DNA from: Deinococcales bacterium
GTDB taxonomy: Bacteria > Deinococcota > Deinococci > Deinococcales > JAAFIG01
Length of the DNA stretch: 64,000 bases
Assembly: GCA_043778225.1 (NCBI GenBank)
Contig: JAYWGM010000066.1
Coordinates: forward strand, 16,674-80,673
Direction of reading: 5' to 3'
Shown: one piece after another, positions 1 to 64,000 of the stretch
How the letters are laid out: the number at the start of each line of letters is the position of its first letter
Numbering within the stretch: position 1 is the first letter of the stretch
The notes under the pieces: model-generated
Database searches by the model: none
What the model was told of the DNA's origin: nothing
Seen by the model: only the letters and a program-made list of their open reading frames with translations
Program-made: the position numbers and the translations under genes

Positions 1-314
1 CTATTGCATTTGATATGGACACGGATACGCTCCAAAAGTCGTACCACACCACGTCGTATCAAAATGCGTACACTGATATTCGCCGAGTTCTCGAGAAATA
101 CGGTTTTACATGGCAACAAGGCAGTGTTTACTTTGGTGGCGATTCCATCAATGCTGTTACTTGTGTTTTAGCGGTCATGGATTTAACACGGACATATTCA
201 TGGTTTTCAGCCTCAATCAGAGATATTCGGATGATGCGAATAGAAGAACAAAACGACCTAATGCCAGCCGTAGAACAAGTTTTGCGTGACTTACCGCAAA
301 AAGCATCATCGTAA
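1..314 (+). CDS. vapD: VapD (Cas2-like fold) virulence-associated protein, 5' end outside the window
   Basis: The frame continues upstream of the called ATG as ..AIAFDMDT. It contains AYxDIrrvL..GF.WQQGSVYF and WF..S.RDIRMMRIEE.NDL, typical of VapD. Confidence 0.85.
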   Translation, partial: IAFDMDTDTLQKSYHTTSYQNAYTDIRRVLEKYGFTWQQGSVYFGGDSINAVTCVLAVMDLTRTYSWFSASIRDIRMMRIEEQNDLMPAVEQVLRDLPQKASS

Positions 315-435
315 GTTTATTGGCTCGAGACGCGGATTGTAGTGCCTAAAAACCCAAGTGGATCTGGACTTGAGGTGAGATGAAGAGACGAAACCCGTAG
401 TTGAAAGGGACTTAGTGTTCTGCTAATATCAGAAA

Positions 436-1077
436 ATGTTTGAACATTCTTATAGGGTAATTTTGAATCATTGGCGGTTAATTAGGTTGTTTGTAGTTAT
501 TTTTGGCTTGACCCAAGCATTTTTTCAATCATCTTATCTTTCTCTTATTGCTAATCGTCTTTATGCCCCAGAAATTTCGTTTTTTGTTTTTGTGATGGCA
601 TTGTTTGCATATGCTTTGTTGCTAGTTCGGGTAGTCCTACAAAGAAGGTGGAGGCTGACGGCTGGTTTACACAGTAGTTTTTTACATATAGAGTCGGATA
701 GACAATTCATAACTAATTTTTTGCACGTAAGTATCACAGGACTATCGTATTCAGGTGCTTATATGTTGGGAGATTTGTACTATAAAGTATCCGTGGAAAA
801 TCAAAATTCTAATTGGATTTTTCTCGAAAATCCCTCATTAGTGTCTCAAATTATTTTTATTTCACTAGTGATGATTTTTTTGGCTGTGTATTTGTGGTCA
901 TACGACACATTTACGGAGCTATTTTTGCCAAATGTGTATCTTGAGAATATGCCCCATGACCAAAATAAAGCCCATACCAGAGAAAAGAATATGTTGTATT
1001 TGGTTTTAAGTTTTGCGTTTTTTCTTATGATTCTTTGCTTTCTACTGGTTCATCAATTTTTCTTTTCTAGTATATAA
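436..1077 (+). CDS. Hypothetical multi-pass membrane protein (AT-rich)
   Basis: 213 aa ORF with about 5 hydrophobic segments; no family recognised. Confidence 0.6.
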   Translation: MFEHSYRVILNHWRLIRLFVVIFGLTQAFFQSSYLSLIANRLYAPEISFFVFVMALFAYALLLVRVVLQRRWRLTAGLHSSFLHIESDRQFITNFLHVSITGLSYSGAYMLGDLYYKVSVENQNSNWIFLENPSLVSQIIFISLVMIFLAVYLWSYDTFTELFLPNVYLENMPHDQNKAHTREKNMLYLVLSFAFFLMILCFLLVHQFFFSSI

Positions 1078-1137
1078 CGGCGTGTAGGTTGGGCTTTGCC
1101 TTAATCCTTTTGGCATGGTAATGCTTGAGACAACCGC

Positions 1138-1359
1138 TTATTGAAACCAATGCTCGTATCTCGAGCGCCATTCTTTTTTGCCAAAACTGATGAATTTAGC
1201 AAAAACTTCTGGATGCAACTTTCGTTAGTCTAATTCTTCAATAATTTCATGGAATTCATGTTCGGTTAAGTAACCATCAAAAGCTGCATCTGATAGGTAG
1301 TTTACGATTTCATCGGTGTTGAATTGTTTGATGTTTCGCTCGGCAATCGTGCCAATTCC
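1138..1359 (-). pseudogene. Possible degenerate gene remnant downstream of the orphan antitoxin
   Basis: Protein-like frame GIGTIAERNIKQFNTDEIVNYLSDAAFDGYLTEHEFHEIIEELD*RKLHPEVFAKF..WFQ* with an internal TAA (1225-1227) and no start codon. Confidence 0.35.
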
Positions 1360-1377
1360 TTATGGTGTTGAACGACT

Positions 1378-1563
1378 TCATGCACTAAATTTTCGATGAA
1401 CTTCTTCGCTGGTTTTGCCGTTGCCTGTTTCGCTGTCTGCCATGCCTCTTGCAATAGATTGCCTAAAAAGAATTGCGTACTGCACATCATCCCAAGTGGC
1501 ATCGTCGGGCAAAGTTTGCAGTAAGCGTTGGGCTTCTTCTCTGACAAGGGTTTTCATGGGCAT
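1378..1563 (-). CDS. Small putative type II antitoxin (RelE/ParE-partner type)
   Basis: The pattern LPDDATWDDVQY..F.QSI.RG.AD...G.G...EEV...F resembles addiction-module antitoxins. Confidence 0.65.
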   Translation of the reverse strand: MPMKTLVREEAQRLLQTLPDDATWDDVQYAILFRQSIARGMADSETGNGKTSEEVHRKFSA

Positions 1564-1632
1564 ATTGTAGCGCTTGGCTCGAGCTTTGCCAAATTTGTAT
1601 CGTGTTTTTTCAAAACCTTGTATGATTGCAGT

Positions 1633-1878
1633 ATGGAAGCCTTGGGTATGGATAAATTTGGTCGAGTTCGGATTCCTAAATCTATTCGGGAAGCCTTGAA
1701 TCTGAAATCAGAAGTGAAATTAGAGGTTCGTGTTTCTGATGGCGAAATTACGTTGCGCCCACAGAACAAAGGGCAGATTGTTGAAAAAAATGGTTTTTAT
1801 GTTTGGACTGGAACAGACCGCCTTGATAAAAGCCTGATTGAACTGATTCAAGAAACTCGTGAAGAGCGGCAGGAATGA
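1633..1878 (+). CDS. vapB: AbrB/MazE/SpoVT-family antitoxin
   Basis: MDKFGRVRIPKSIREALNL..EVKLEVRV.DGEITLRP; leaderless TATGAT-N6-ATG; ATGA overlap with the PIN gene. Confidence 0.85.
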   Translation: MEALGMDKFGRVRIPKSIREALNLKSEVKLEVRVSDGEITLRPQNKGQIVEKNGFYVWTGTDRLDKSLIELIQETREERQE

Positions 1879-8226: not shown

Positions 8227-9366
8227 GTGGCACAAAGTATTGAAGATGGCTCGAGGGGCTGTATTCTTGGTGGTGCAGTTGGGGATGCCTTGGGTGGTCC
8301 GACCGAGGGTCGTACCCCAGCCGCAATTCAGGAGCGTTATGGTGGCTGGGTGACGGATTTTGTTGGTCCGTTTCATTTGGATTGGCAAACGGCGCGTCCG
8401 ATTTCACCGCTTCATAAGGGCGATGGTCATATCACTGATGACACGCTGATGGTCATGGCATTAGCCAGTGTGTATGCCGATGTGCGCGATCATTTAACTG
8501 CCTTTGAAATGGCAAGTCATCTGACAGTCAAAATTGCCGATGAAGTGACGTACATTCCCGAATTTGAACGCGAGACGGTGTTGGTCAATCGCTTATTTTA
8601 TGCCGAAAAATACTTGTTGTTGCGCTTGCGCTTTGCCAATGCCGACCCTCGAGAAGCTGGGGTTGGCAATGTGGTCAATTGTGGCGCGGCGATGTATATG
8701 GCACCGGTTGGGATTGTCAATGCGGGTAATCCGCGTGGGGCGTATGCCGAGGCGATTGAATTGGCTGGGGCGCACCAAAGCAGTTATGGGCGTGAAGCAG
8801 CAGGGGTCTTGGCGGCAGCTATCGCCGAGGCACTAAGTCCTGATGCCAGTGTCGAAAGCATTATTAAAACCTGTTTGGATTTGGCTCGAGATGGGACTCG
8901 AGCTGCGATTTTAGCCGTTACCCAAGCGGCTCGAGACATTTCAAATTGGCAAGCAGCGATTCCAATTTTGCGCCAAGCGGTGCTGCCCTTTGATAGTGTC
9001 GGCGAGCATTACCGCGACCCACACCCAGATGCGCGTCGTCCGAGTCGAACCAAAGCGATTGAGGAACTGCCCGTGGCGCTTGGAATGTTGGTCATGGCAA
9101 AGGGCGAATACTTACCAACGGTTCTGGGTGGAGTCAATTATGGGCGTGATTCAGATTCGATTGCTTCGATGGGTGGAGCAATTAGTGGTGCGCTGCACGG
9201 TGCATCAGCCGTTCCTGCCGATTGGGCGAGTTTTATTCAAGAACGCAGCCGTAAGGATTTAGAACGCACGGCTCGAGACTTAGCAGCCGTTGCCAAAGAA
9301 GTCTTTTTGCGTGACCAAGAGCGTTTTGCGGCTCGAGTTGCCGCGTTTCCACAAGGTAAGCCATGA
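8227..9366 (+). CDS. ADP-ribosylglycohydrolase (ARH/DraG family) 1
   Basis: G.AVGDALG.PTEG, TDDT, NCGAAM, DSDSIASMGGAISGA. Confidence 0.92.
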   Translation: MAQSIEDGSRGCILGGAVGDALGGPTEGRTPAAIQERYGGWVTDFVGPFHLDWQTARPISPLHKGDGHITDDTLMVMALASVYADVRDHLTAFEMASHLTVKIADEVTYIPEFERETVLVNRLFYAEKYLLLRLRFANADPREAGVGNVVNCGAAMYMAPVGIVNAGNPRGAYAEAIELAGAHQSSYGREAAGVLAAAIAEALSPDASVESIIKTCLDLARDGTRAAILAVTQAARDISNWQAAIPILRQAVLPFDSVGEHYRDPHPDARRPSRTKAIEELPVALGMLVMAKGEYLPTVLGGVNYGRDSDSIASMGGAISGALHGASAVPADWASFIQERSRKDLERTARDLAAVAKEVFLRDQERFAARVAAFPQGKP

Positions 9367-11488: not shown

Positions 11489-12663
11489 AACCACCAGCCC
11501 TACCACTCGAGGGAATTCGGGTACTTGACCTCTCGAGCCTTTATGCAGGACCCTTGATTGCCACCAATCTTGGTGATTTCGGAGCAGACGTGATTAAAGT
11601 CGAGCATCCTCGGGGCGACGACGCACGGCGTTGGGGACTGAGTAAAACCTTGCCAAACGGCACAGATATTCCGCTCTGGTGGAAGTCATTATCGCGCAAC
11701 AAACGCCTCATCACCCTCGATTTGCACTTGGCAACCGACCTCGAGATTGTGCGCCAATTGTGCCAGTGGGCGGATGTCTTAATCGAAAATTTTCGTCCTG
11801 GTCGGCTCGAGAGTTGGGGTTTAGGCGAACAAGAACTAAAAACCCTCAATCCGCGTTTAATCGTGGCTCGAGTAACAGGTTTTGGACAAACCGGTCCAAT
11901 GCAGCAGCAACCCGGTTTTGGCACGCTTGCCGAAGCATTTTCTGGTTTTGCCTTTATTACAGGCGAAGCTAACCGCCCGCCGACCTTACCGCCATTTGGT
12001 TTAGCCGATGGTGTGGCAGCCCTGACTGGAACATATGCAGTGATGATGGCGTTGTACTGGCGCGATGCCCAAAACGGTGGCTTGGGACAAGTCATTGATT
12101 TAAGTTTATACGAACCGCTCTTCTCGATTTTAGGACCACAAGCCATCGAGTTTATTCAGACCAAAACCATTCAGAACCGTCATGGCAACCGTTCTAAACG
12201 GACTTCGCCGCGAAATACCTATCAAACCCTAGACCAACGCTGGGTTGCCCTGTCTGGTGGCACACAGCAAGTGGTCAATCGGATGCTGGTCGCTATTGAA
12301 CGCCCAGATTTACTCAGCGATGCCCGTTTTGCCAATGCCAAAGCTCGAGCCAAAAATAGCGACGAACTAGATGTACTCATTGCCAATTGGATTGCCACCC
12401 ATGACCTCGAGACGGTGCTAACCACCTTTCGGGCTGCCGAAGCACCAATTGCACCTGTGTACGACATTGAACAGATTCTAAAAGACCCACAATATCAAGC
12501 CAGAGGCTCGGTAGTGCATATCGAAGATGATGAGCTTGGCACGGCTGCGATGTCTGGGATTGTGCCTCGGCTTTCGCGCACACCCGGCAAAATTAAGTTT
12601 TCTGGACGCACTTTGCTTGGGCATGACCAAGAAGAAGTGCTGAAGATGATTGGACTAAAATGA
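11485..12663 (+). CDS. CaiB/BaiF family III CoA-transferase
   Basis: PLEGIRVLDLS, AGP, GADVIKVE, NRNK-like SRNKR, ENFRPG. Confidence 0.93.
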   Translation: MKPPALPLEGIRVLDLSSLYAGPLIATNLGDFGADVIKVEHPRGDDARRWGLSKTLPNGTDIPLWWKSLSRNKRLITLDLHLATDLEIVRQLCQWADVLIENFRPGRLESWGLGEQELKTLNPRLIVARVTGFGQTGPMQQQPGFGTLAEAFSGFAFITGEANRPPTLPPFGLADGVAALTGTYAVMMALYWRDAQNGGLGQVIDLSLYEPLFSILGPQAIEFIQTKTIQNRHGNRSKRTSPRNTYQTLDQRWVALSGGTQQVVNRMLVAIERPDLLSDARFANAKARAKNSDELDVLIANWIATHDLETVLTTFRAAEAPIAPVYDIEQILKDPQYQARGSVVHIEDDELGTAAMSGIVPRLSRTPGKIKFSGRTLLGHDQEEVLKMIGLK

Positions 12664-20461: not shown

Positions 20462-21868
20462 ATGACACCAGACTGGGTTAAAGATGCGGTTTTCTATCAG
20501 ATTTTTCCAGACCGTTTTGCCAAATCAAAAGCTGTACCAAAGTCGAGCAACCTCGAGCCGTGGGATTCTAAACCCACACCACATGGCTATAAGGGTGGCG
20601 ATTTACTCGGCGTGGTCGAGCATCTGGATCACCTCGAGGCGCTTGGCGTAACCGCCATTTATTTTTGTCCAGTCTTTCAGAGCGGCTCAAACCACCGCTA
20701 CCACACCCACGATTATGAAAAAGTAGACCCGATGCTGGGTGGCAACCAAGCCCTGAAAACCTTAATCGAAGCGGCTCATGCAAGGGGCATGAAGGTCGTT
20801 TTGGATGGGGTGTTTAACCATGCTTCACGGGGATTTTTTCAGTTTCATGATGTTCTCGAGAACGGCAGCCAGAGTGCTTATCTCGATTGGTTTTATATTA
20901 AGGGCTATCCGCTCAGGGCATATGAAAGCCGTGAGCCACCCAATTATGAAGCCTGGTGGGGTTATCCAGCGCTACCAAAATTTAATACCGATACCTTGGC
21001 GGTGCGTGAATACCTTTGGGGGGTTGCCGAATACTGGATGCAGCAAGGGATTGATGGTTGGCGCTTGGATGTTCCCAATGAAATAGATGACGATGCGTTT
21101 TGGCAAGAATTCCGACGGCGAGTCAAAAATGTCAACCCCGAGGGCTATATTGTTGGTGAAATCTGGGAAACGGCTGCCCGTTGGCTGCAAGGCGACCAAT
21201 TTGATGCGGTCATGAATTATGTCTTCTCGAGTCTGGCATACGATTTTTTAGCCGCCCAACAAGTGATTCCAAGCGTCACTAAGGATACCAGCGTCAAACA
21301 CTTTGGGACACGCCACTTAAATGCTGAAAGTTTTGCCAAAGGACTCGAGGATTTACTGGCGCTCTACCCGTGGGAAATTAACCTTGTGCAACTCAATTTA
21401 CTCGGTAGCCACGATACGCCACGCTTACACAGCATCATTGGTAACAACCTAGCAACCTACAAACTTCTCACCATTTTCCAGATGGGTTTTGTGGGTACAC
21501 CGTGTATTTATTATGGCGACGAAATTGGACTCGAGGGGACTCACGACCCCGACTGTCGGCGTGGGATGCCATGGGAAACAGAACAATGGAACTTAGAAAT
21601 TCTCGAGTTCACCAAAAGCGCAATTGCTGCCCGAAAACGCATTGCCGCCTTAAAACGCGGTACATTTAAGGTGCTACAAAGCCAAGCCATGACGGTACTT
21701 TTTGAACGCAGCACCGACTCGAGCCGAGCGCTGGTAGCCCTGAACGCTGGGCAAACTGCCGTTGTTCTCGAGCTTCTTGGGGTCTACACCGATGCCCTAA
21801 CTGGTTCTCGAGTTGAAGGCAAGCTCGAGTTGCCAGGTCGTTCTGGAGCAATCCTCGAGGCAATCTAA
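20462..21868 (+). CDS. GH13 neopullulanase/cyclomaltodextrinase-type glycosidase
   Basis: FYQIFPDRF, DGVFNH, DGWRLDV, GEIW, SHD catalytic motifs. Confidence 0.93.
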   Translation: MTPDWVKDAVFYQIFPDRFAKSKAVPKSSNLEPWDSKPTPHGYKGGDLLGVVEHLDHLEALGVTAIYFCPVFQSGSNHRYHTHDYEKVDPMLGGNQALKTLIEAAHARGMKVVLDGVFNHASRGFFQFHDVLENGSQSAYLDWFYIKGYPLRAYESREPPNYEAWWGYPALPKFNTDTLAVREYLWGVAEYWMQQGIDGWRLDVPNEIDDDAFWQEFRRRVKNVNPEGYIVGEIWETAARWLQGDQFDAVMNYVFSSLAYDFLAAQQVIPSVTKDTSVKHFGTRHLNAESFAKGLEDLLALYPWEINLVQLNLLGSHDTPRLHSIIGNNLATYKLLTIFQMGFVGTPCIYYGDEIGLEGTHDPDCRRGMPWETEQWNLEILEFTKSAIAARKRIAALKRGTFKVLQSQAMTVLFERSTDSSRALVALNAGQTAVVLELLGVYTDALTGSRVEGKLELPGRSGAILEAI

Positions 21869-41751: not shown

Positions 41752-42678
41752 ATGATTCAGTTCTATGCTTGCCCCAACAATCAACTCGAGCGAATCCTGC
41801 TGCCCGAAAACGGCTGTTGGATAGATGTGGTGCGCCCCGACAGCCCCGAGCGTCAGGCACTACACCAAGAATATGCCGTGCCACGTGATTTTATTGCTTA
41901 TGCGCTTGACCCAGACGAACGTCCACGCTTGGAACGCGAAGCCGATTGCACGATGCTGGTCTTACAAGTTTCGCACTGGCTAGGACATGACTCTTTAACC
42001 CCTTACGATACTGTACCGCTTGGGGTGATGCTGACCCCAAACCAGATTATTACCGTCTGCGCCCACCGCCATACGGTGCTGCTCGACTTAAAACGCGGTA
42101 AATTCAAAATCAGCAGCACCACCGACCAAGCCAGATTTTTATTGCAAGTTCTCTGGCGCACTGCCCAGCGTTTTTTGCTCGATTTACGCGCCATAGAACG
42201 CCGCTTAGAATCGCTCGAGCAACGGCTTTCCAAAAGCACCAAAAATAAAGAATTGCTCGAGTTAATGCGCTTAGAAAAAAGTTTGGTCTATTTTAAGACC
42301 GCGCTGCGCTCGAATATCTCGTTGCTCGAGCGCCTAAAAAACGAAGAGGCACTGATTGGTACACACGCTGCCATGCTCGAGGATGTGCTAATAGAAACTT
42401 CTCAAGCCCTCGAGATGACCGATATTGCCCTATCTATTCTTGGCACAACCACCAGTGCTTTTGCTGCTGTGATTGGCAACAACCTCAACGAAGTGGTGCG
42501 GATGCTGACGATTGTGACGGTCATGGTTGCCTTGCCAACTTGGATTACCGGTGTCTTTGGAATGAATGTGCCTCTGCCATGGCAAAACGAACCGTGGAGC
42601 TTTGCTGCTGTGATGCTGCTCTGTGTGGTGGCGGTTGTGGGCTTACTGACGCTCTTAAAAAATCGTGGCTGGCTCTAA
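41752..42678 (+). CDS. corA: CorA-family Mg2+ transporter
   Basis: ALDPDERPRLE, NNLN.V...LT, GMN motif between two C-terminal TMs. Confidence 0.92.
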   Translation: MIQFYACPNNQLERILLPENGCWIDVVRPDSPERQALHQEYAVPRDFIAYALDPDERPRLEREADCTMLVLQVSHWLGHDSLTPYDTVPLGVMLTPNQIITVCAHRHTVLLDLKRGKFKISSTTDQARFLLQVLWRTAQRFLLDLRAIERRLESLEQRLSKSTKNKELLELMRLEKSLVYFKTALRSNISLLERLKNEEALIGTHAAMLEDVLIETSQALEMTDIALSILGTTTSAFAAVIGNNLNEVVRMLTIVTVMVALPTWITGVFGMNVPLPWQNEPWSFAAVMLLCVVAVVGLLTLLKNRGWL

Positions 42679-42684
42679 TCCACT

Positions 42685-42974
42685 AATACCCTAACCGGCG
42701 AGCAAGACATCAGCACTGAACCCGCTTAAAGCCTGTTTTTACTGGCGTGTCAGTAAAGACACCATGAACTTCGAGCCTCGCCGACAGCACCCCGCTCGAG
42801 CCTCTTAAAGCCCTGATGACTAAACGCGGTACAACCCAGTACAAACTACAAAAAGCAGGTGTGGCAAAACAATCGGTTATCTCTCGAGTGTTAAGTGGGG
42901 AACGACAAATTTCTGGGGAATTAACTAAAAGCCTAAGTCAGTTTTTTCAAGTGCCATACAAGATTTTTTTGTAA
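42685..42974 (+). pseudogene. HigA-like Xre/HTH antitoxin remnant
   Basis: Frame ..STPLEPLKALMTKRGTTQYKLQKAGVAKQSVISRVLSGERQISGELTKSLSQFFQVPYKIFL*; the upstream part is interrupted by stops or a frameshift. Confidence 0.7.
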
Positions 42975-43082
42975 GTGTGATTCGAGACTTGCATCAGGCT
43001 AGGGTAAAACCACGACAGAATTTAGAATCTTTGTGGATTAGTATACTAACGTTCCATTTTTTAGTTTTGGTATTCTACTAAT

Positions 43083-43496
43083 TCAATTCAGCCGTTGAAT
43101 CACACCACTTAATTCTCCATTCGGGTAACTAGTGGTTTTAATAAGCACTTTGGTCAATCCATTATTTACGTTATTGATGTCATCATTGGTTGCTGGACCT
43201 TCGCAAATGCCAGCAAACCGCCCACTTGCTACAGTATCTGGATATATGTCCATAATGCAGGTTCTAGTCGGCGAGCTTACAATTATAGAAGTAGGTGGGC
43301 TTGTCAAGGTCGAATAACTACCATTAACCGAAAGCCTTGCATTATTATCTTGTGAGGAAGCATCCATCTGACCAATTCCTGATGTAATGACACCTAAGAC
43401 TGGCATTAAAGAGGCTTTGAAGGAATACGTGTTATTAACAATACAACTTGTAAAAGCAAATCCAAAAAAAGCGAAAAGCAACTTATTCATATTCAT
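43083..43496 (-). CDS. Lipoprotein with degenerate CHRD-like domain
   Basis: Lipobox FTSC; FKASL...SG.G, GSYSTLTSPPT, G..KV.IKT..YPNGELSG.I. Confidence 0.7.
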   Translation of the reverse strand: MNMNKLLFAFFGFAFTSCIVNNTYSFKASLMPVLGVITSGIGQMDASSQDNNARLSVNGSYSTLTSPPTSIIVSSPTRTCIMDIYPDTVASGRFAGICEGPATNDDINNVNNGLTKVLIKTTSYPNGELSGVIQRLN

Positions 43497-43505
43497 GGCA
43501 AACTC

Positions 43506-44024
43506 CTAGTTGATGCTTACAGCGAATGATTTATCTTTGATTAACTTATACTCATTAGTAGTATTTGGAACTTTCGTAAAGCCTAGTATGTACAAATAAA
43601 GTCCTATTTGTGCAGAAGCCAGTTTTCTTACAGCCTGTATTCTGAATTTTAATTCAGCATTTCTGCTGTTTAACGCGATTGGTTCAATTAATTTTGGTGA
43701 TACCTGTAAGATTCCATTAACTTCAATAGATAACGAATCACTTTCAGGGATCTGTAAAATCTCTGAAACCGAATTTATCCTTGCACAATTGCAGGTATAG
43801 ATTAGAAATTTAGGTATTTCTGAAATCAAATCTGTTTTTGTGGTCACTTTGGCAACAAAACTCCTATCTCCCATAAGGGGAAAAAATAAAGCGTCATTTG
43901 ACCTTAATTGCCCATTTTCATAGACACCCATTTCAGTCGCTGCTATTTCAAAAGGGGGAAACGACGTACAGGATTGCAGCATAAGTCCAAAAAACATCAG
44001 CACTAGCAGACTACTTTTTTTCAC
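43506..44024 (-). CDS. Hypothetical lipoprotein
   Basis: GTG start with AAGGA upstream; lipobox LQSC. Confidence 0.7.
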   Translation of the reverse strand: MKKSSLLVLMFFGLMLQSCTSFPPFEIAATEMGVYENGQLRSNDALFFPLMGDRSFVAKVTTKTDLISEIPKFLIYTCNCARINSVSEILQIPESDSLSIEVNGILQVSPKLIEPIALNSRNAELKFRIQAVRKLASAQIGLYLYILGFTKVPNTTNEYKLIKDKSFAVSIN

Positions 44025-44059
44025 AATCTCACATCCTTCAGGTACTAAAATCTGACTTA

Positions 44060-46111
44060 CTACCTACATTGAAACGTATTCGCAATATCTAGTGAAACTA
44101 AATCAGCGGCAGTCATACCTGTATCTTTTAAGATATTGCAGACTTTTGTATTGTTTTCCATGCTAGAAAGTTTATATTGATATAGGCTGAGTATATTTTT
44201 TGTTATAGTCAAAGGTGAAATGACAGTTGTGTTGGTTGCATGGGGTAGCGCATTATCGCGTATATTCATCCATGCCACCTTTGCTTGGTTTAATTCCTGA
44301 CTGCTAGGTATTAAGGTTTGATAACCTTGGATTGTCCAATCTGCTGCAAATTCCGTAATTAATCTATAGAAGAGTGTTCCTACATAATGCTCATTAGTCA
44401 TGCGAATAAGTGACGGATACGAACATGACGATTGTTGCGTACAATTTCGCAAATCCCAAAATAAACCCATTGGTGGATTGTTTACACTATCTATTCGATT
44501 TGTAGTACGATTAAAATTTTGTACAATCAACATATGTGTTGCTTGCGCCCAACCCTCATTGGTAGCGTACTGGTAGGTATAATTGGAAGGTATATGTTGA
44601 AATCCTGATATAAAACCGTATTGGCAATCCGCAAGCCCTGCTTCGGTATTAATTGTTGAACTACAAAAAGGATTGATAAGTGGAGCAAAATCAGGAACAC
44701 AAGGGACGAAACTAAACATACACCCCCCAAATGTTGTTGATTGATTTTGGGGATTCCTAATAAAGTTACCATACAAATTTGAGGATATTGTTTTGCTGTA
44801 CAATGTATTGTGTCCGAATTCATGAACCATCGGATATAACCCACGCCAGTCTTCAGTCTTTAGAAATACTTGACCTATTGGCGCAAATGTTCCAAGAGCA
44901 TTGATACGGATATTGACTTTGGTTTGTATACCTGTAAAGTCTTCTGCATACTTTAATAAGTTCAGTGTCCAAAGACTTCTTGTTACCTCACCATCATTTG
45001 CCTCAAGATAAATCGTTCGATTTTGTGGCACCTGATCCCAAAAAGTTCCTGTGATTAAACGAGGCGACGAGAGTTGTATTAGTTGTGTCACATGACCAGT
45101 ATCACTTTCTGGGATGACCTCATATTGTGGATCATAATGAGACCAGTCCAAAAAGAAGCCCGTATCGCACGTCGGACGTGCATAAGAGAACTGTCCATTA
45201 TCGTCAAGATAACCTTCTGCAATTAAATTCCGCCAAGCACCATTATTGTCATAAACATACACTCGAGCCTTACGAAGCGGGTATCCACCATAATAATAGG
45301 GATCAACACCTCGGGCATAGTTAGGCACACCAGTGCTTGAATAATCTGAATCAGAAATAGCGCCGCTTGGTGGTGCTGTATAGTTCCGAATTGCAAATCT
45401 GACGGTTTCTATCGGTCCGAGAGTACATCCCCAACCCTGCACTGATAAACGACTGCCATTAACTTGTAGCCGCCCTAGTGAACTTTGATTGATAGGAGCA
45501 GGTTCGTCCAACTGTGCGGGATATATAGGAGTCGCACCTGTATTGAATAGGTACTGTACATCATATTTGTTCTTGGTACTTTGTACTGCATTACTTTGAG
45601 CAATAGGTGAAATGGTCGCTTCCAGTTCTTGATCGCTATTTTTTGATAAACGTGCTTTTTCAAGCTTTCTTGCAAATTCAACTACTGTTGAAAACTGGGT
45701 CACAGAACCTATTTGACTTTGAAGCAAATCGGTACTTATTTTTGGTTTAAACTTTAATTGGACTGAACGAGACCAAGATGAACTGGAGGCATCAACCATA
45801 AGATTTATATGTGTCGCTTGTCGGGGTGTTACCTTAAAATAAACTGTCTGAGTCTCACCTGCCCCAATTGGTACTTTGATTGGATCTGGGGTCTTTAGAT
45901 GACTTCCTCCAGAAACAACTAAATTTACAGACACTTTCGTTGGACTGATAATTATCGCTTCAAATGTTGACTCATATCCTACAACCGAAATACCGATCTG
46001 CTTAACCATTAGAGTAGGCTTTTGTAGAACCCCGATTTGCAACTCTTTTGTAGTACAAGAAACTATACTTCCAAGAAAGAGAGAACCCAGTAGAAGCCAA
46101 AATTTCCTCAT
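44060..46111 (-). CDS. Large lipoprotein, putative gluzincin zinc metallopeptidase
   Basis: Lipobox IVSC; Ig-like N-terminal region; VHEFGH (HExxH) with downstream NEGWA. Confidence 0.7.
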   Translation of the reverse strand: MRKFWLLLGSLFLGSIVSCTTKELQIGVLQKPTLMVKQIGISVVGYESTFEAIIISPTKVSVNLVVSGGSHLKTPDPIKVPIGAGETQTVYFKVTPRQATHINLMVDASSSSWSRSVQLKFKPKISTDLLQSQIGSVTQFSTVVEFARKLEKARLSKNSDQELEATISPIAQSNAVQSTKNKYDVQYLFNTGATPIYPAQLDEPAPINQSSLGRLQVNGSRLSVQGWGCTLGPIETVRFAIRNYTAPPSGAISDSDYSSTGVPNYARGVDPYYYGGYPLRKARVYVYDNNGAWRNLIAEGYLDDNGQFSYARPTCDTGFFLDWSHYDPQYEVIPESDTGHVTQLIQLSSPRLITGTFWDQVPQNRTIYLEANDGEVTRSLWTLNLLKYAEDFTGIQTKVNIRINALGTFAPIGQVFLKTEDWRGLYPMVHEFGHNTLYSKTISSNLYGNFIRNPQNQSTTFGGCMFSFVPCVPDFAPLINPFCSSTINTEAGLADCQYGFISGFQHIPSNYTYQYATNEGWAQATHMLIVQNFNRTTNRIDSVNNPPMGLFWDLRNCTQQSSCSYPSLIRMTNEHYVGTLFYRLITEFAADWTIQGYQTLIPSSQELNQAKVAWMNIRDNALPHATNTTVISPLTITKNILSLYQYKLSSMENNTKVCNILKDTGMTAADLVSLDIANTFQCR

Positions 46112-46257
46112 AACATCCCCCAATTTTCAGCACAGAATAAGCCGCATCAATAGTTCGGAAATTGCCGAATTACGAAACTGAACAACTGGAGCTTATTGTC
46201 TACGATGCCCTAAAGAAATACCATTCTTACTTGCTACCTAGCATTTGCAAGGGGTAG

Positions 46258-46821
46258 TCACTGCCTGTCCAACACATGGTCTTGTCCCCAGAACCAAAGT
46301 GCAAATTGGGTTCGGTTAGCAATAATTGTGCTTGGGCTTGCTGCTCTAGCTTTCTCGAGAACTTCCATCACGGCTTTTCTTGTCGCATCTGGTTCTTTAC
46401 CAACTAGCAAACCAATTTCTTTACTCTCTAAGCCTCGAGCCAATTCTCGAGCAATGGTTAATTCTCGAGGCGTAAATTTAACTTTTGGTTTTGGTACATT
46501 TGAGTACGTTTGGTTGTTTTGAATGATGGCTACAGCTTCAGCAATAGAATCCGCACCGTTGCTGTTAAAAATCATGCCTTCTGGTTTGAAGCCTTCTAGG
46601 CATTGAAGATACGCCGAGCAAGCATTATCGGTAATGACCACGGTGGGTTTTGGTTTGCCGTGTTTCTCGAGGTAACGCAGGGCTGTTCCCATTCGGGCAT
46701 CTATCAGTACGATTATTTCTGAATTTGAACAAATTTTATAACCCAGTGCAGCAATGTATGTCTCGAGTCCCGTTTTGAATTTGGGCATTTCACAAATGAG
46801 TTGCAGACTTGGTTTGTTCAC
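46258..46821 (-). CDS. LuxR/NarL-type regulator with degenerate receiver-like N-domain
   Basis: FTPRELTIARELARGLESKEIG HTH, NRTQFALWFWG; SD GGAGGA before GTG. Confidence 0.8.
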   Translation of the reverse strand: MNKPSLQLICEMPKFKTGLETYIAALGYKICSNSEIIVLIDARMGTALRYLEKHGKPKPTVVITDNACSAYLQCLEGFKPEGMIFNSNGADSIAEAVAIIQNNQTYSNVPKPKVKFTPRELTIARELARGLESKEIGLLVGKEPDATRKAVMEVLEKARAASPSTIIANRTQFALWFWGQDHVLDRQ

Positions 46822-47064
46822 AATTCCTCCCATAAATTTGCAAAAGTATAGCACCCCCCCCTCTATTTTTTTGCAATACGACAGTTTTATACCGTTTAGC
46901 ACAGTAAAAATCAATTTAAAGTATTCAAAAATAATGGCTCGAGAAATCACTTACAACACATCATCTGTGCCTCGAGCTTTGCGCTTCATGGCTTTTCGCC
47001 GCCAGCGCAGGGCAGTATTCACGGCGCTCGAAATTAGAGATTGAGGAAAATTTTATAGGCACAT

Positions 47065-47436
47065 TCACACCGCTATCCGTAAACTGGCGCGTTCGCAAAG
47101 TACCTCGAGAACTTCAAACATACACAGCACTTGGTACTGCCGCACCCGAGCCGATTCAAGCACTGCTGTCTCGAGCCACAGACTGCCCTGAACTTCGTCG
47201 TAGCTGCTGCTTAAATTGCCACGAAAGTCGTCGAGGTGCGTGACCGACCAAACCCGCACCCCACTAAATTCAAAAGAACAAGTTTCTGAACCTGTCCCAC
47301 CTTCGGAAGTGTACTCGAGAAAAAGAGAAGCCTCGAGTTTAAGAATACCCTGCACATACTCGAGACGCTGCAAAACCAAAGCCTCACGCCCACGCAAAAT
47401 GCCATGGCGGGTTTTAATTGGCTGGTAGTGGGGCAT
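47065..47436 (-). CDS. Hypothetical protein
   Basis: 123 aa ORF with host-like CTCGAG content. Confidence 0.6.
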   Translation of the reverse strand: MPHYQPIKTRHGILRGREALVLQRLEYVQGILKLEASLFLEYTSEGGTGSETCSFEFSGVRVWSVTHLDDFRGNLSSSYDEVQGSLWLETAVLESARVRQYQVLCMFEVLEVLCERASLRIAV

Positions 47437-50027: not shown

Positions 50028-50954
50028 TCAATCAAAAAGAAAAAGCGATGATTGTTGTGGAATCAAGAGGGGATATGCCACTTTAGGAATTTCGTGATTG
50101 TGTTTTTCGATCTGTGGTGCTTCAAAATTAAAAATTAACGCCTCAACCATTGGATTTCTATTCTCGATTTTTGCTCCTGAATGATAATAATGGTCTCGAG
50201 TCACGATTTGAAAATCTGACCAGTATTTTTTGATGTTAATGTTTTCCCGAAAATCATTATGATGCCATGACGATAATATGAAGCGTGCAGGCGTTTCACG
50301 TAGTGCTTGAGCCAGTTGTTGCTCGTTTTCTTCAGTCCAATTATTATAATAATCGGTGTACCGTCCAAGATAAGGTGGGTCACAATAAATTAAGTCGCCA
50401 ACTTGTGCGGTCTGAATGGTGGTTAAGTAATCTTGGTGTAGAAATTTCCACTCTGGACGAATAACATTGGCACAATAATCGGTTTGATTGGTAATTTTTG
50501 TAACGTAAGCTGGCGCGAATCGGTCTGGTTTTTTACAAAATGGGATATTCCACCGACCTGCTTTTGAAAAACGCATCATGCCATTAAAACCGGCTCGAGA
50601 TAAGAACAAAAAGTCGAGTGGCTGAAAGGTCGTATTGAATCGTTCTCGAATAAATCGGTAATGCTGGTAGCCATTTTCGTCGGCTTGACGCAGCAAATCA
50701 CCTTCACGCTGGAGGTAATCCCGAACTAAATCGGGTGTGATTTCTCCAGACTGGATCGCAGCGTAAAAAGCAATAATATGTGGGTTTGAATCAGCAAAAA
50801 TAGCTTGTTTAGCCTTGATATTTAAGCCAACCACACCACTGCCCATAAATGGTTCAATCCAACGCTCAAAATCTGGCGGTACAAGTTGGCGAATCCAAGG
50901 GACAAGTTTGGTTTTGATACCTTGACATTTAAGTGGTGGTACAAAGGTTTTCAT
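50028..50954 (-). CDS. Dam-class (D12) N6-adenine DNA methyltransferase, M.EcoRV-like
   Basis: FVPPLKCQGIKTKLVP, EPFMGSG (motif I), DPPY (motif IV), FNGMMRF. Confidence 0.92.
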   Translation of the reverse strand: MKTFVPPLKCQGIKTKLVPWIRQLVPPDFERWIEPFMGSGVVGLNIKAKQAIFADSNPHIIAFYAAIQSGEITPDLVRDYLQREGDLLRQADENGYQHYRFIRERFNTTFQPLDFLFLSRAGFNGMMRFSKAGRWNIPFCKKPDRFAPAYVTKITNQTDYCANVIRPEWKFLHQDYLTTIQTAQVGDLIYCDPPYLGRYTDYYNNWTEENEQQLAQALRETPARFILSSWHHNDFRENINIKKYWSDFQIVTRDHYYHSGAKIENRNPMVEALIFNFEAPQIEKHNHEIPKVAYPLLIPQQSSLFLFD

Positions 50955-51793
50955 CAGGCTTCTTCGTCTTCTGGTTCTGCTCGAATGACCGCTTGGTGAG
51001 CATTGAGGCTTTTCATACCTCTTTGCTTATATTCAAAATACGTTTTAAGGCTCGAGTAAGGTCTTGGAAGCTCGAGTGTCTTTGCCATATCGGCGGTTAA
51101 GTAAAACATCCAGTAATCGTCATAGACATCTTCACCTAATGCACTAAAAATCCCGTTTCCTTGTACTAAATCAGCAATATTTGTGCAAGAACCAATGTTT
51201 TTTGTATTACCACTACCCGGACGACTGACGGCAATTCGGTATTTAGGTTGTGCAAAAAATTGGAATGAATGAATCACCGATGGAATAGTCGCTAAATCCT
51301 CGAGTGTGTACTTTATGCGTTCGTCCAGCGCATCATCGTTACGTGAATAAATCACGCCAAGCACATAATGCCCTTCGTAATCAGCATACGGGTATAAAAT
51401 GTTCTTTTGGCTGCTTCGGTTACGAAAGTAACCTGTAAATGCGCCTAGAGTCATACCATTGACCGAATCTTTGGATGTACGGTAGGTACTTTTAATGTCA
51501 ACTGCAAACTTCTGACCCGTAAGTAAATGCACAAAAGAAACATCTGGATAAAAGTTCTGTTGTGGCGAAAGGTCCAAACGAAAACCATGTTTTTCGCCAA
51601 AAATCACAAACATTGGGAAAAGTAGCAGCTCGAGAACTTTTGAAACAATTTTGGTATCCACTGAAATGCTATAAATGTTTTGATAAACGTCAATAAATCC
51701 TTTAATAATCCACTGACCTTCAGATGTTGCAACAGCATGAGCAAAAGATTCTATTTCAGCTTGCAAGGCAATTAAAAAGCCATCTTTGTTCAT
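50954..51793 (-). CDS. EcoRV-family type II restriction endonuclease
   Basis: DTKIVSKVLEL, QNFYPD...AVDIKSTY, TLGAFTGYFRN, GSGNTKNIGS, matching EcoRV motifs as I know them. Confidence 0.88.
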   Translation of the reverse strand: MNKDGFLIALQAEIESFAHAVATSEGQWIIKGFIDVYQNIYSISVDTKIVSKVLELLLFPMFVIFGEKHGFRLDLSPQQNFYPDVSFVHLLTGQKFAVDIKSTYRTSKDSVNGMTLGAFTGYFRNRSSQKNILYPYADYEGHYVLGVIYSRNDDALDERIKYTLEDLATIPSVIHSFQFFAQPKYRIAVSRPGSGNTKNIGSCTNIADLVQGNGIFSALGEDVYDDYWMFYLTADMAKTLELPRPYSSLKTYFEYKQRGMKSLNAHQAVIRAEPEDEEA

Positions 51794-51902: not shown

Positions 51903-52889
51903 ATGAAAGTCATTGCCACACTTGCTGCATTACATGCCACTGCACCACTGTACAACGCCCAAACTGTGCTGGAAATACTCGAGTTCTTAGGTGCAAAAAA
52001 AGTTATGCTTGCCGATGTAACCCAAAAAGACTGGGCAGGCGGTGCATGGCGAAACCTCGACGACCCAGTCTTGTTTGCACTCGAGGATGCTCGTATAGAT
52101 TGCCGTGGTATTGCGCCAGATTGGGCTTGGGCAAATCTTGAATACAACAAAATGCTCGAGTTTCTCAAACAATTCCCACAAGGGCAGCAGCGTTTGAGGC
52201 AGCTTGGACAGGCAGAACGCGACTTAAAAACGGTTCTCGAGCTTCCTTTAGATGTGCAAGTAGTTTACGGATATTTACTCGAGACGGTGGCAGCCCATCA
52301 CAAGCACATCACCGAACTGCTTGAGGAAGGTCCGGGGACGGCTCACCGCTTGCAACGACTCGAGCAAATCGTAGCAAAACTCGAGCCAGATGCAGTTTTA
52401 CTGGCAAGTCTGGATGATGTCCCAACCCTCTTAGAACTCGGTCTCGAGTTGCCAGATTTAACGGGTTTTGCACCAAGTGAAGCCAGCCGTTTTCGAGCCA
52501 TCATAGACCGAGCCTACCGACTCGAGGATAACGATGACTTAGATGCCTTGGTACATTTGTTGCTGGCTTTGGACGCACCCGCCGACACAGCCCTAGCACG
52601 AATGGCACTCGAAGCGCGGTTTGCTGCCAGTGGTTTGTACCTCGCTGTTGGCGACTGGGAAAGCGCCCGAGATTTACTCGAGGCGGTCGCCATGGGACAA
52701 TTCGAGCGCCCAAGTTATTTGCCGGGCTTTGTGCTGGCACGGCTTGGGCAGTGCCGAGACCTGATGCTCGAGCGTGAACGTGCGATGCGAGCCTATACCG
52801 CCGCACTGGCACTGGCATACTGCCCATCCGAGGCTCGAGCCGTAGCAAGTCTGGGTCTGCTCGAGCCGTTTAGTTTGAGCGGCTTTTGA
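51903..52889 (+). CDS. Hypothetical protein with C-terminal TPR-like helices
   Basis: 328 aa; LARLGQCRDL..ERERA.RAY.AAL; TAGATT-N6-ATG. Confidence 0.7.
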   Translation: MKVIATLAALHATAPLYNAQTVLEILEFLGAKKVMLADVTQKDWAGGAWRNLDDPVLFALEDARIDCRGIAPDWAWANLEYNKMLEFLKQFPQGQQRLRQLGQAERDLKTVLELPLDVQVVYGYLLETVAAHHKHITELLEEGPGTAHRLQRLEQIVAKLEPDAVLLASLDDVPTLLELGLELPDLTGFAPSEASRFRAIIDRAYRLEDNDDLDALVHLLLALDAPADTALARMALEARFAASGLYLAVGDWESARDLLEAVAMGQFERPSYLPGFVLARLGQCRDLMLERERAMRAYTAALALAYCPSEARAVASLGLLEPFSLSGF

Positions 52890-62552: not shown

Positions 62553-62646
62553 ATAATCTCCTATGAAGCTGTCGAGAACGATTGAGAATTTTAAGACCTG
62601 TCTTTTGTTTATTGATAACCTCCTCGAGAAACTGATTAAAAAATCG

Positions 62647-62760
62647 AATGGACACGTGTCCATTTTTATCGTGAACAAGTTTTTCGGCTAAGAAAGCTAT
62701 ATTTCTCGAGTCTCGTTAGGGGCAAGAAATCAAGAACCTGTTTGAATGGTCACGTGGTCA
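62647..62760. promoter_or_regulatory. Paired LacI-type operators
   Basis: Perfect palindrome AATGGACACGTGTCCATT (62647-62664) and variant AATGGTCACGTGGTCA (62745-62760). Confidence 0.8.
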
Positions 62761-62818
62761 GAACTCTACAAGATTGGATTAGGATTTGTAAAGCCCCCTC
62801 GAGCGCTATACTGGTCTC

Positions 62819-63844
62819 GTGACCAGTATCCTTGATGTTGCCAAAAAAGCAGGGGTCTCCCCAACCACCGCCAAGCGTGCGGTCAACCAGCCACATTTGC
62901 TGACCAAAGCCACACTCGAGCGAGTACAGACCGCCATTCAAAACCTCAACTACGAACCAGACCGCACGGCTGGCGCACTGCGGCGTGGACATAGCCAGAC
63001 GATTGGCTTAATGGTCGGGAACATCATCGAACCATTTTTTGCCCAACTGACGCGCACGATCGCTAAAGCAGTTCATGCCAAAGGCTATGCCCTGATTGTT
63101 GCCGACAACGAATACGACACCAGCCTTGAACTCGAGAACTTACGAATGTTTCATGGGCAACGGGTCAGTGGCTTAATCATCCGCTCGGCATTCGGTACGG
63201 GCAACCTTGAGTATTTGCGGCGTTTACAACAACAAGGCACGTACATCCTCGAGATTGACCATTTTTTACCCGAGAGCGGCTTTAGTCACATCATGCTCGA
63301 TAACCACGGTGGAGTCGAGACAGGACTGCGCTATTTATACAACCTAGGACACCGCAAAATTGCCGCCCTGACCGTTTTTGATGCCACCAAATTCCAAGAT
63401 GAACGCGCTCGAGCCTACACCGAAATCATGACCAGCCTTGGCTTAAAAATCCCCCAAGCCTACCAGCGCAGCACCGACCTGACCGAAGAAGGCGCGTATC
63501 AGCGCACCCTCGAGCTATTGCGCTTAGCCGAACCACCGACGGCTATTTTTTCGATGACCGGCAACGAAGCCGCCGGTGCGTTTCGGGCGCTCAAAGAGCA
63601 ACAGCTTCGTATTCCCCAAGATATTTCGTTCTTAACTTTCGATGATTACTCATGGACCAGTCTGGTCGAACCGCCTCTGGATGTGATTACCCAACCAATA
63701 GAAGCCATGGGCTTACGAGCCGCCGAGTTGGTGATTAGTGCGATTGAACGCCGCCAATTGAACGACACACATCTCGAGCGCTTTGCTTGTCGCTTGATTG
63801 TCCGCAGCAGTTGCGCTGCACCACGCCGCCACAAGCTCCATTGA
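62819..63844 (+). CDS. LacI-family regulator of the polyol operon
   Basis: SILDVAKKAGVSPTT HTH; leaderless TATACT-N6-GTG. Confidence 0.94.
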   Translation: MTSILDVAKKAGVSPTTAKRAVNQPHLLTKATLERVQTAIQNLNYEPDRTAGALRRGHSQTIGLMVGNIIEPFFAQLTRTIAKAVHAKGYALIVADNEYDTSLELENLRMFHGQRVSGLIIRSAFGTGNLEYLRRLQQQGTYILEIDHFLPESGFSHIMLDNHGGVETGLRYLYNLGHRKIAALTVFDATKFQDERARAYTEIMTSLGLKIPQAYQRSTDLTEEGAYQRTLELLRLAEPPTAIFSMTGNEAAGAFRALKEQQLRIPQDISFLTFDDYSWTSLVEPPLDVITQPIEAMGLRAAELVISAIERRQLNDTHLERFACRLIVRSSCAAPRRHKLH

Positions 63845-63869
63845 CACACGCCAAACACCCTGATACACT
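63841..63869 (+). promoter_or_regulatory. tRNA promoter
   Basis: TTGACA-N17-TACACT. Confidence 0.75.
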
Positions 63870-63905
63870 TCTTTTCGCCCAAGAAATCGGGCGCTGCCGA
63901 CGCGG

Positions 63906-63979
63906 TGGGGAATCGTCTAATGGCAGGACAACAGTTTCTGGATCTGTTTATCGTGGTTCAAATCCACGTTCCCCAGCCA
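63906..63979 (+). tRNA. tRNA-Gln (anticodon CTG)
   Basis: TGGGGAA/TTCCCCA acceptor stem, anticodon arm ACAGT-TTCTGGA-TCTGT, T-arm CGTGG-TTCAAAT-CCACG, encoded CCA. Confidence 0.93.
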
Positions 63980-64000
63980 AAGCTCTCGAGAACGTCCGCC

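Follow-up and report, generated by a model that had tools for sequence, protein, structure and literature searches.

CTCGAG is a hyper-iterated palindrome upheld by a DNA-level force in a family of Deinococcales, a denser counterpart of cyanobacterial HIP1

Why should a single six-letter palindrome, CTCGAG, recur several times per kilobase along a bacterial chromosome, in genes and spacers alike? The question was raised by a 64-kb stretch of DNA from a Deinococcales bacterium (G000:C66:16674-80673, G000 being the genome that carries it; hereafter the window), in which an earlier note, made from the sequence alone, had described CTCGAG as a word resembling the highly iterated palindrome HIP1 of cyanobacteria. 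The G000 assembly is of the metagenome type, with 4,029,277 bp in 107 contigs (the largest of 154 kb), a GC content of 48.7% and 89% completeness. We counted 371 copies of CTCGAG in the window (5.8/kb) versus 8.03 ± 2.88 in dinucleotide-preserving shuffles (n = 100), a 46-fold excess; the maximum among the shuffles was 14 copies, and 0/100 attained 371. A 1-kb profile along the window ranged from 0 to 13 copies per kb, in genes and spacers alike. The whole of G000 contains 24,877 copies, that is 6.17/kb or one per about 160 bp, which amounts to 26.7 times the mononucleotide expectation. The density of several copies per kb first noticed by eye is therefore a property of both window and genome, and the genome-wide count of observed over expected hexamers, which had been suggested as a check, placed CTCGAG as the commonest hexamer of G000, the runners-up being hexamers that overlap it.

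The 12 bases on each side of CTCGAG carry almost no information content in G000, indicating that the hexamer is not part of a longer repeat. The exception among the flanks was CCTCGAGG, found in 243 copies versus about 812 expected from independent flanks (about 3-fold rarer); this sequence is an 8-bp palindrome and, as a guess, some rare-cutting restriction system might recognise it. The maximal-order Markov observed/expected ratio (O/E) for CTCGAG was 1.16, a value that is uninformative because the signal already sits in the pentamers. Regarding the DNA itself, 8 kb of window sequence was recovered with 0 differences in Logan contigs of two DNA runs, possibly the source samples (no RNA run was listed), and the closest database match of the G000 release-factor gene showed 91% identity (entry "MAG: Deinococcales bacterium", MAG standing for metagenome-assembled genome), the next one 52%.

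To separate DNA from codons, genes were called crudely, as greedy open reading frames (ORFs) of at least 100 aa; the resulting 3,465 ORFs cover 88.5% of G000 and short genes are thus counted as intergenic. Coding copies fell in all three frames, 12,938 as CTC-GAG (Leu-Glu, 59% of the total), 4,420 as xCT-CGA-G and 4,598 as xxC-TCG-AG, and the 470 kb of uncalled DNA contained 2,908 copies (6.18/kb, versus 6.16/kb in coding DNA), so that the earlier claim of a DNA-level signal, present in every frame and between genes, held. Codon use was displaced accordingly: 69.2% of the 18,707 Leu-Glu pairs were written CTC-GAG versus 2.1% expected from codon use elsewhere, a 33-fold shift; outside the Leu-Glu context, CTC accounts for 9% of the codons for Leu, and GAG for 23% of those for Glu. 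All four codons concerned, CTC, GAG, CGA and TCG, are minor codons in G000 when outside CTCGAG. Eligible sites in the two other frames were filled by CTCGAG in 59.7% ([A/S/P/T]-Arg-[G..]) and 41.7% (x-Ser-[Ser/Arg]) of cases, and GAGCTC, which combines the same two codons in reversed order, has only 24 copies in G000. Since a strict dicodon-preserving shuffle retains the in-frame signal by construction, codons were instead shuffled synonymously within each gene, a conservative procedure, as the protein stays unchanged and so do the codon counts of each gene, which are inflated to begin with. This shuffle yielded 2,347 ± 47 CTCGAG versus 21,980 observed (9.4-fold), with excesses of 7.9-, 11.6- and 14.3-fold for the three frames. 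The enrichment thus outlasted the codon-preserving shuffle used in place of the dicodon one and was not confined to Leu-Glu, which answers two of the refutations envisaged in the earlier note.

Expressed as log-odds over a context-free expectation, the boost was 4.60 for Leu-Glu, 3.91 for xCT-CGA-G and 3.57 for xxC-TCG-AG, and in non-coding DNA it lay between 3.49 (mononucleotide) and 4.12 (first-order Markov). One force of one strength, raising the odds about 35- to 100-fold, fits all compartments, and the equal density of coding and non-coding DNA follows from this uniform boost and is not a separate fact. These results indicated that CTCGAG is upheld at the level of DNA by a force that is uniform and still acting, and strong enough to outweigh codon preference and to alter proteins. 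We also considered avoidance of other palindromes as a factor steering codons to CTC-GAG and rejected it, since it leaves both the non-coding excess and the 33-fold shift of Leu-Glu spelling unexplained.

The imprint on proteins was apparent in the dipeptides, Leu-Glu being the most over-used one in G000 (O/E 2.33, about 10,700 surplus pairs) and Glu-Leu having an O/E of 0.97. Orthologues were compared at the G000 in-frame CTC-GAG sites of one 20-kb region, with outgroups represented by one or two genes per genome. At these sites, the outgroup families had Leu-Glu in 14/56 cases versus 35.9% identity for all other dipeptides, and members of the taxonomic family of G000 (hereafter the family) had it in 202/267 cases versus 66.4% for other dipeptides. 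Proteins have been changed, then, to accommodate CTCGAG.

How far does the trait extend? All of the 18 other family genomes, belonging to five genera, carry CTCGAG at 4.3-6.8/kb (genome sizes rounded), a density that they maintain while the GC of the sampled family loci spans 0.46-0.61; the lineage-wide character proposed at the outset was therefore borne out, and the recovery of 8 kb in Logan contigs together with the 18/18 family genomes removed the concern that the enrichment might be missing from raw reads or from relatives. When aligned with 12 family genomes, 30-77% of the G000 CTCGAG sites were found at the same place, with four-fold third positions 36-54% identical. Sites shared despite diverged four-fold positions indicate that CTCGAG is being maintained and does not descend from a single burst; point mutation keeps removing copies, and copies keep being regained. 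Among the 18 one-off neighbours of CTCGAG in G000, TTCGAG (O/E 1.37) and CTTGAG (O/E 1.41) ranked highest, transition neighbours being the commonest (1.16-1.41) and transversion neighbours the rarest (0.15-0.95), a spectrum expected if the neighbours are mostly decay products of CTCGAG.

The phylum survey comprised 251 genomes, labelled as one order and five families. Among the 246 genomes outside the family, a single one, G253 (7.0/kb), was in the family's density range. G196 reached 3.6/kb, three genera of family f5 about 1.4-3.5/kb, and one surveyed genus 2-3.5/kb, and densities of 1-2.9/kb were seen in many genomes of f2 and f4; in g7, the largest genus with its 92 genomes, CTCGAG was at about 0.3/kb or less, like the reversed control word. 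The release-factor proteins of G253, G196 and G197 form a group, 70-73% identical among themselves (73% for G253 versus G197) and 51-53% identical to that of G000, as those of other outgroups are. Loci sampled from G253 (L264-L269 and L283-L303, 125 kb) contained 7.2 CTCGAG/kb, in all frames and in non-coding DNA, with 81% of Leu-Glu written CTC-GAG versus 3.8% expected and a Leu-Glu O/E of 2.36. Those from its nearest sampled relative, G197 (L270-L274 and L282, 100 kb), gave 0.3/kb, 5.8% versus 8.1% expected and an O/E of 1.15, and the G196 sample (84 kb) was intermediate, with CTC-GAG in 80% of Leu-Glu versus 14% expected, mainly in frame. In the release-factor gene, the motif-rich genomes of both lineages share CTCGAG at conserved Leu-Glu positions and each has, in addition, private sites that arose through changes in the protein sequence; the gene is free of CTCGAG in G197 and G020. 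The ortholog alignment called for by the earlier note thus returned both positionally kept and private sites. Weaker excesses were found in samples of 200 kb each from other families, where gene calls are rough in GC-rich genomes: Leu-Glu was spelled CTC-GAG in 62% versus 32% expected (G025), 51% versus 27% (G021) and 31% versus 21% (G019). Taken together, the trait varies by degrees within the phylum: at least two lineages are saturated, whereas others have lost it or never gained it. CTCGAG richness is not exclusive to the family of G000, and it is heritable at the family scale and switchable on or off between relatives.

The layout of the copies along G000 was then analysed. Gaps between neighbouring CTCGAG have a mean of 161 and a median of 117 bp, with a fat tail due to a few deserts, and gaps below 20 bp are depleted to 0.21-0.53 of the geometric expectation. 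Pair correlation rose from 0.13 (below 10 bp) through 0.48 (10-20 bp) and 0.82-0.91 (20-60 bp) to about 1.0-1.1 farther out, and no preferred spacing or periodicity was seen at distances up to 1.5 kb. Synonymous sites with a copy 6-12 bp away were occupied in 26.6% of cases versus 52.4% after permutation within genes (z = -19); the values were 40.5% versus 57.2% at 12-20 bp (z = -17) and 54.6% versus 58.5% at 20-30 bp (z = -4.8). An occupancy excess at 80-300 bp, which gives an appearance of long-range evenness, arises because short-range exclusion is combined with fixed counts in the permutation. Counts per interval were near-Poisson, with only slight under-dispersion for intervals of 250-1000 bp (variance/mean of 0.77-0.85) and a ratio of at least 1 for those of 2 kb and above. 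Exclusion was weaker in uncalled DNA and over by 20 bp (0.35 for distances of 6-10 bp, 0.77 for 10-20 bp). There were zero CTCGAG pairs at distance 6, because such a pair would make GAGCTC. CTCGAG-N-CTCGAG (distance 7) occurred 123 times, versus 30-33 pairs at distances 8 and 9. Density was flat around gene starts and ends and similar in convergent (6.9/kb), divergent (6.1/kb) and tandem (6.3/kb) spacers, so that no promoter or terminator association was found at the starts, ends and spacers of G000 genes. Placement is, in short, near-random at uniform density, with an exclusion over about two helical turns (some 20-30 bp) that fits a protein footprint, hairpin avoidance or the lack of added benefit from adjacent copies.

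Several known systems invite comparison. The DNA uptake sequences (DUS) of Neisseriaceae and the uptake signal sequences (USS) of Pasteurellaceae are family-specific words present at about 1/kb or more in all frames and spacers, which shape proteins and are scarce in imported DNA; they are 9-12 bp long and non-palindromic, in spacers often form inverted pairs at terminators, and probably accumulate through biased uptake. CTCGAG likewise acts at the family scale, in all frames and spacers, shapes proteins and is scarce in imported DNA, but it is a 6-bp palindrome with no preference for terminators or promoters (convergent spacers 6.9/kb, the others 6.1-6.3/kb), and the competence gene comEC is also present in motif-poor relatives. 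XhoI/PaeR7I restriction-modification recognises CTCGAG, and a restricting host is expected to avoid its site, whereas this same word is the commonest hexamer of G000. The GATC of Dam, used with MutH and SeqA in gamma-proteobacteria, is a methylated palindrome found about once per 150-250 bp and exploited genome-wide; CTCGAG has a similar density, but no MutH match was found in G000, in which GATC itself is depleted (O/E 0.13). Very short patch (VSP) repair, by Dcm and Vsr, shapes CCWGG abundance in E. coli and is thus a case of a repair enzyme raising the count of its own word; G000 differs in giving no Vsr match and in a neighbour spectrum opposite to the VSP prediction.

The closest parallel is HIP1, which has been known for three decades and whose function is only now being approached. 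HIP1 (GCGATCGC) is described in the available text of two reports as a highly iterated palindrome of cyanobacteria (PMC5861425; PMC4390886). Both words are palindromes hyper-abundant at the scale of a phylum or family, in genes and spacers, many-fold over expectation; both are conserved beyond background, not explained by codon use and scarce in exceptional lineages. For HIP1, the literature provides links to orphan methyltransferases and recent work points to transformation, as far as the accessible parts of these reports go (10.1101/2024.09.10.611283; PMC13756078). The differences are that CTCGAG has six letters and HIP1 eight, that word and phylum are other ones, that CTCGAG reaches several copies per gene (about six, at 6.2/kb), HIP1 being reported at more than one per gene in some genomes, and that CTCGAG leaves a clear imprint on the proteome (Leu-Glu O/E 2.33). 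A periodicity at tens of kb is given for HIP1 in the available part of Xu et al. 2018 (PMC5861425); for CTCGAG, distances up to 1.5 kb were covered, without periodicity. The HIP1-like word acting on DNA that the earlier note proposed thus stands, with a 26.7-fold excess genome-wide, in all frames and non-coding DNA and throughout the lineage: the CTCGAG system is a denser counterpart of HIP1 in another phylum. No published report of CTCGAG enrichment was found in the literature searched, a coverage to which subscription journals mostly do not belong. A second case shows that hyper-iterated palindromes recur and are not a cyanobacterial oddity, and it comes with handles that HIP1 lacks, namely a close on/off pair (G253/G197) and a graded series across families, suited to phylogenetic profiling. 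A further handle is provided by cultured Meiothermus and Marinithermus with CTCGAG adenine methylation and no named restriction partner, in which knock-outs and transformation assays are feasible.

That methylation is on record in the phylum. Blow et al. 2016 (PMC4752239, table S3) list active N6-methyladenine (m6A) enzymes that modify CTCGAG in three cultured members, Marinithermus hydrothermalis, Meiothermus ruber and M. chliarophilus; the available part of the report names no endonuclease partner for them. The CTCGAG richness of Meiothermus suggested in the earlier note would agree with these Meiothermus enzymes and with the 2-3.5/kb of the one surveyed genus. The word is the same as ours and is modified on both strands, with 94.6%, 99.5% and 94.1% of the sites, respectively, detected as methylated; two of the enzymes are annotated differently, as Eco57I/TaqI-like and Type I M-like. 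The available part of that paper reports no genome-wide CTCGAG enrichment for those organisms, and describes clusters near dnaA in Nocardia. An ORF of G025, located about 34 kb into its contig and the only Eco57I-family match there, is identical to an M. hydrothermalis NCBI protein named as a TaqI-like adenine methylase, and is taken to be the tabulated Marinithermus CTCGAG enzyme; G025, which carries it, has a moderate CTCGAG excess (62% versus 32% of Leu-Glu). CTCGAG methylation is therefore documented in the phylum and, by analogy, plausible in the family of G000.

We searched G000 for genes that might be responsible. Pfam scans gave about 24 DNA-methylase candidates, for which NCBIfam and Pfam reveal no specificity; such a number fits a very large restriction-modification load. 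Six of them (L089, L091, L105, L092, L093 and L106) were traced through 31 genomes, the D12 and C5 classes lying outside this trace. L089, with a TaqI_C domain and weak PDB matches, was found in 2 other genomes, L091 in 1 and L092 in 1 (72% identity); L093 and L106 were patchy, and L105, a Type I HsdM (the M subunit of a Type I operon), was present in 3 other family genomes at 83-93% identity. The solitary methyltransferase tracking the enrichment for which the earlier note had suggested searching did not emerge among the 7 enzymes traced (these six plus the Marinithermus-type P0001). Family scans of G013, G196, G253 and G197, as well as G025 and G009, disclosed no methylase orthologue common to all motif-rich genomes; the matches to PF02384/PF07669/PF01555 were 7/4/2 in G253, 4/2/0 in G013, 3/2/0 in G196 and 0/0/0 in G197. 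Vsr (PF03852) and MutH (PF02976) gave no match in G000 (89% complete), nor did the XhoI family (PF04555), a weak negative in that the same search was also blank in all 14 control genomes. Two solitary proteins of about 1,000-1,070 aa, at G000:C99:49951-52971 and G000:C1:34616-37834, have Type ISP coupler, methylase and specificity domains; they lack a Pfam helicase or nuclease domain, share 24% identity, are of native composition and are patchy among relatives.

Avoidance of other palindromes is extreme in G000, in keeping with its many methylase candidates: 34/64 palindromic hexamers do not reach a tenth of their expected count. There is a single copy of AGGCCT, of GACGTC and of GGGCCC, and there are 3 of GGCGCC; GGCC has 131 copies (O/E 0.009) and GATC an O/E of 0.13. 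The non-palindromic GGCGTC/GACGCC and GTGCTC/GAGCAC are nearly absent too. Taking the number of avoided palindromes (palindromic hexamers below 0.1 of expectation, of 64) as a proxy for restriction pressure, we found that the CTCGAG excess rises with it in eight genomes which, being related and in small samples, provide only a lead. The fold excess and the number avoided were 26.7 and 34 (G000), 28.3 and 27 (G253), 15.3 and 16 (G013), 10.8 and 8 (G196), 8.2 and 5 (G025), 5.3 and 1 (G021), 5.3 and 16 (G019), and 1.2 and 3 (G197).

What, then, could uphold the word? In the reading that we tentatively take as the likeliest, a restriction-less adenine methyltransferase would modify CTCGAG, as in the cultured relatives; the methylated word would identify DNA as belonging to the lineage when it is taken up and/or recombined in natural transformation, and its copies may have spread by biased uptake or conversion together with weak selection. 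The model is built by analogy with current HIP1 work, in which the same reading is now put forward and where, in the accessible parts of the reports, methylated HIP1 raises transformation (10.1101/2024.09.10.611283) and HIP1 abundance correlates with DNA-transfer genes (PMC13756078), and both methylation in the family and any role in transformation are inferences. The motif-free G197, which has no match to the three DNA-methylase families scanned, speaks in its favour. A number of results weigh against it. None of the six G000 methyltransferases traced is family-wide among the 31 genomes (D12 and C5 classes not among them), and the complete family genome G013 has no PF01555 and only 4 PF02384 matches, all of them without close orthology to the tested enzymes of G000. 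Orthologues of the Marinithermus-type enzyme (54-56% identity) were confined to G022 and G026, two genomes lacking CTCGAG enrichment, and none was found in the family; methylation there, if any, would be carried out by non-orthologous enzymes or by the D12 or C5 classes outside the trace. ComEC (PF03772) is present in 5/5 genomes, motif-rich and motif-poor (G197 and G020 included), so that competence genes do not discriminate between them and do not track CTCGAG. Finally, near-Poisson placement without preferred spacing demands no function, and a conversion drive lacking function would yield the same uniform log-odds. A broader proposal, possible but rather doubtful, is that CTCGAG, methylated on adenine by interchangeable restriction-less methylases, would be a phylum-level signal of own DNA, promoting the uptake and/or recombination of kin DNA and driving its own spread, saturated in the family and in G253, low in several families, lost in G197 and strongest under the heaviest restriction pressure. 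If true, it would be a second, independently evolved system of the HIP1/DUS kind, with natural on/off pairs and cultured relatives.

The own-DNA mark has to be weighed against other explanations. A molecular drive without function, in which a repair or nicking activity with sequence specificity (of the VSP kind, or due to an enzyme bound to the motif and biasing mismatch or gap repair) would convert near-cognates to CTCGAG until mutation and conversion balance, despite the protein cost, is unlikely in our judgement. Such a drive would account for log-odds that are the same in all four compartments, for near-Poisson placement, for a word that looks costly (rare codons, altered proteins) and for a trait on in G253 and off in G197, as expected for gain or loss of one gene; it is at odds with the lack of Vsr and MutH matches in G000, with TTCGAG and CTTGAG being the commonest neighbours, of which VSP repair predicts depletion, and with the mutual avoidance of copies over about 20-30 bp, which is not expected of a drive working on each site separately, although hairpin avoidance could still explain it. 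We likewise think it improbable that CTCGAG is a housekeeping mark of the Dam type, with an orphan methylase writing m6A on it and hemimethylated sites guiding repair, replication timing or nucleoid proteins. GATC occurs in E. coli about once per 240 bp, a density due to chance which a six-letter word would have needed 27-fold enrichment to match, and one CTCGAG per 160 bp, uniform over compartments and with copies nearer than about 20 bp disfavoured, is in keeping with this idea, as are, in the available part of the Blow et al. report, the orphan-like CTCGAG m6A enzymes of the cultured relatives and the Nocardia clusters near dnaA with an orphan methylase (PMC4752239). What counts against it is that G000 has no MutH homologue, that no family-wide methylase was found among those traced, and that G197 and genus g7 (92 genomes, about 0.3/kb or less) do without the word.

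A defence mark, whereby DNA without dense (methylated) CTCGAG would be sensed as foreign by a nuclease or silencing system, so that selection would favour a host with the word throughout its genome, is very unlikely: imported DNA is indeed poor in CTCGAG and the excess rises with avoided palindromes in the eight related genomes (only a lead), but no candidate sensor was found and motif-poor islands, such as one in the window, persist. Such a mark would predict phages that mimic the word. A viral scan for stretches with triple CTCGAG returned at least 130 loci, of which the 80 long ones were mostly GC-rich contigs where GAGCTC is also common, and none of the viral matches listed was a phage with the family's signature. 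Two trivial explanations are refuted. Bias in codons, dipeptides or composition, or a repeat, the hexamer as such carrying no signal, would suit the 59% of coding copies in the Leu-Glu frame and the commonness of CTC and GAG codons in GC-rich relatives; it fails before the 9.4-fold excess left by the synonymous shuffle, the equality of non-coding and coding density, the mere 24 copies of GAGCTC and the uninformative flanks. An artefact of assembly, linkers or contamination could be suspected from CTCGAG being a common cloning site and from a metagenome-type assembly in 107 contigs, but conserved genes contain the copies in frame, other genomes have them at matching positions, 18/18 family genomes and G253 show them, and the Logan contigs of two runs (possibly the source samples) had 0 differences over 8 kb.

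CTCGAG is also scarce in imported DNA. Its density climbs with gene GC, from 0.32/kb (GC below 0.34) through 3.6/kb (GC 0.38-0.42) to 8.0/kb (GC 0.54-0.57), a rise of which about 3.5-fold is expected from composition alone (our own arithmetic); 77% of the genes with GC below 0.34 lack any CTCGAG, typical genes having 6-8/kb. The CTCGAG-free gaps of at least 1.2 kb in G000 number 37, make up 69.5 kb together and are mostly of low GC. The features of the window that bear on this are the following.

1..64000, no strand: the whole window, 371 CTCGAG over genes and spacers, shuffle expectation 8.0
436..1077, plus strand: ORF of 213 aa, 0 CTCGAG, GC 0.333, no Pfam, PHROGs or PADLOC match
21520..21860, plus strand: 3' end of an alpha-amylase-family gene, 7 CTCGAG in 341 bp
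42636..47074, no strand: motif-poor, low-GC insertion, with ORFs 43506-44024, 44060-46123 and 46258-46950, all on the minus strand
50028..51793, minus strand: EcoRV-type restriction-modification pair, D12 adenine methylase (50028-50954) and EcoRV endonuclease (50954-51793)
51903..52889, plus strand: densest gene in the window, 13 CTCGAG in 987 bp (13.2/kb), GC 0.534

The hand counts first made in four of these places (13 in 51903-52889, 7 in 21520-21860, 1 in 43083-46111 and 0 in 436-1077) were all identical on recounting. Neither the densest ORF, 51903-52889, nor the three insertion ORFs had a Pfam, PHROGs or PADLOC match. Within the insertion, the gap 42883-45262 (2,379 bp) is the 7th longest CTCGAG-free gap of G000. 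The insertion (42636-47074) is missing at the same site in 5/7 congeners, the flanks lying 42 bp apart in G001 and 54 bp apart in G007 and abutting in G004, G005 and G006, three genomes also without ORF 41680-42678; the site holds other DNA in G003 and is split over contigs in G002, which allows no verdict there. The island ends 42700-42974 and 46951-47060 match short pieces on other congener contigs at 72-86% identity; both pieces adjoin in G007:C423, which suggests that a small repeated element surrounds the island. For ORF 436-1077 we infer a foreign origin from its composition. The EcoRV-type pair, with GC 0.40 and 6 CTCGAG (3.4/kb), is DNA of the mobile type with an intermediate density; GATATC has 13 copies in G000, and the other low-GC methyltransferase genes of this genome range from 0 to 7 CTCGAG/kb. 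The original statement that the word is absent from foreign DNA was thus right as to its scarcity (the insertion, and the 0.32/kb of low-GC genes) and too strong in view of the EcoRV pair. In the same manner, such intermediate densities in the pair and in the low-GC methyltransferase genes make CTCGAG density a rough flag for import and not the clock of gene residence time that had been proposed. In practice, scarcity of CTCGAG flags recently imported DNA in these genomes, and XhoI is useless as a rare cutter for them.

Elsewhere in the window, three ADP-ribosylglycohydrolase-family genes lie in a row on the plus strand (8227-9366, 9363-10637 and 12660-14804), by sugar-transporter and LacI-type genes, and a tRNA gene at 63906-63976, also on the plus strand, is the sole Rfam match.

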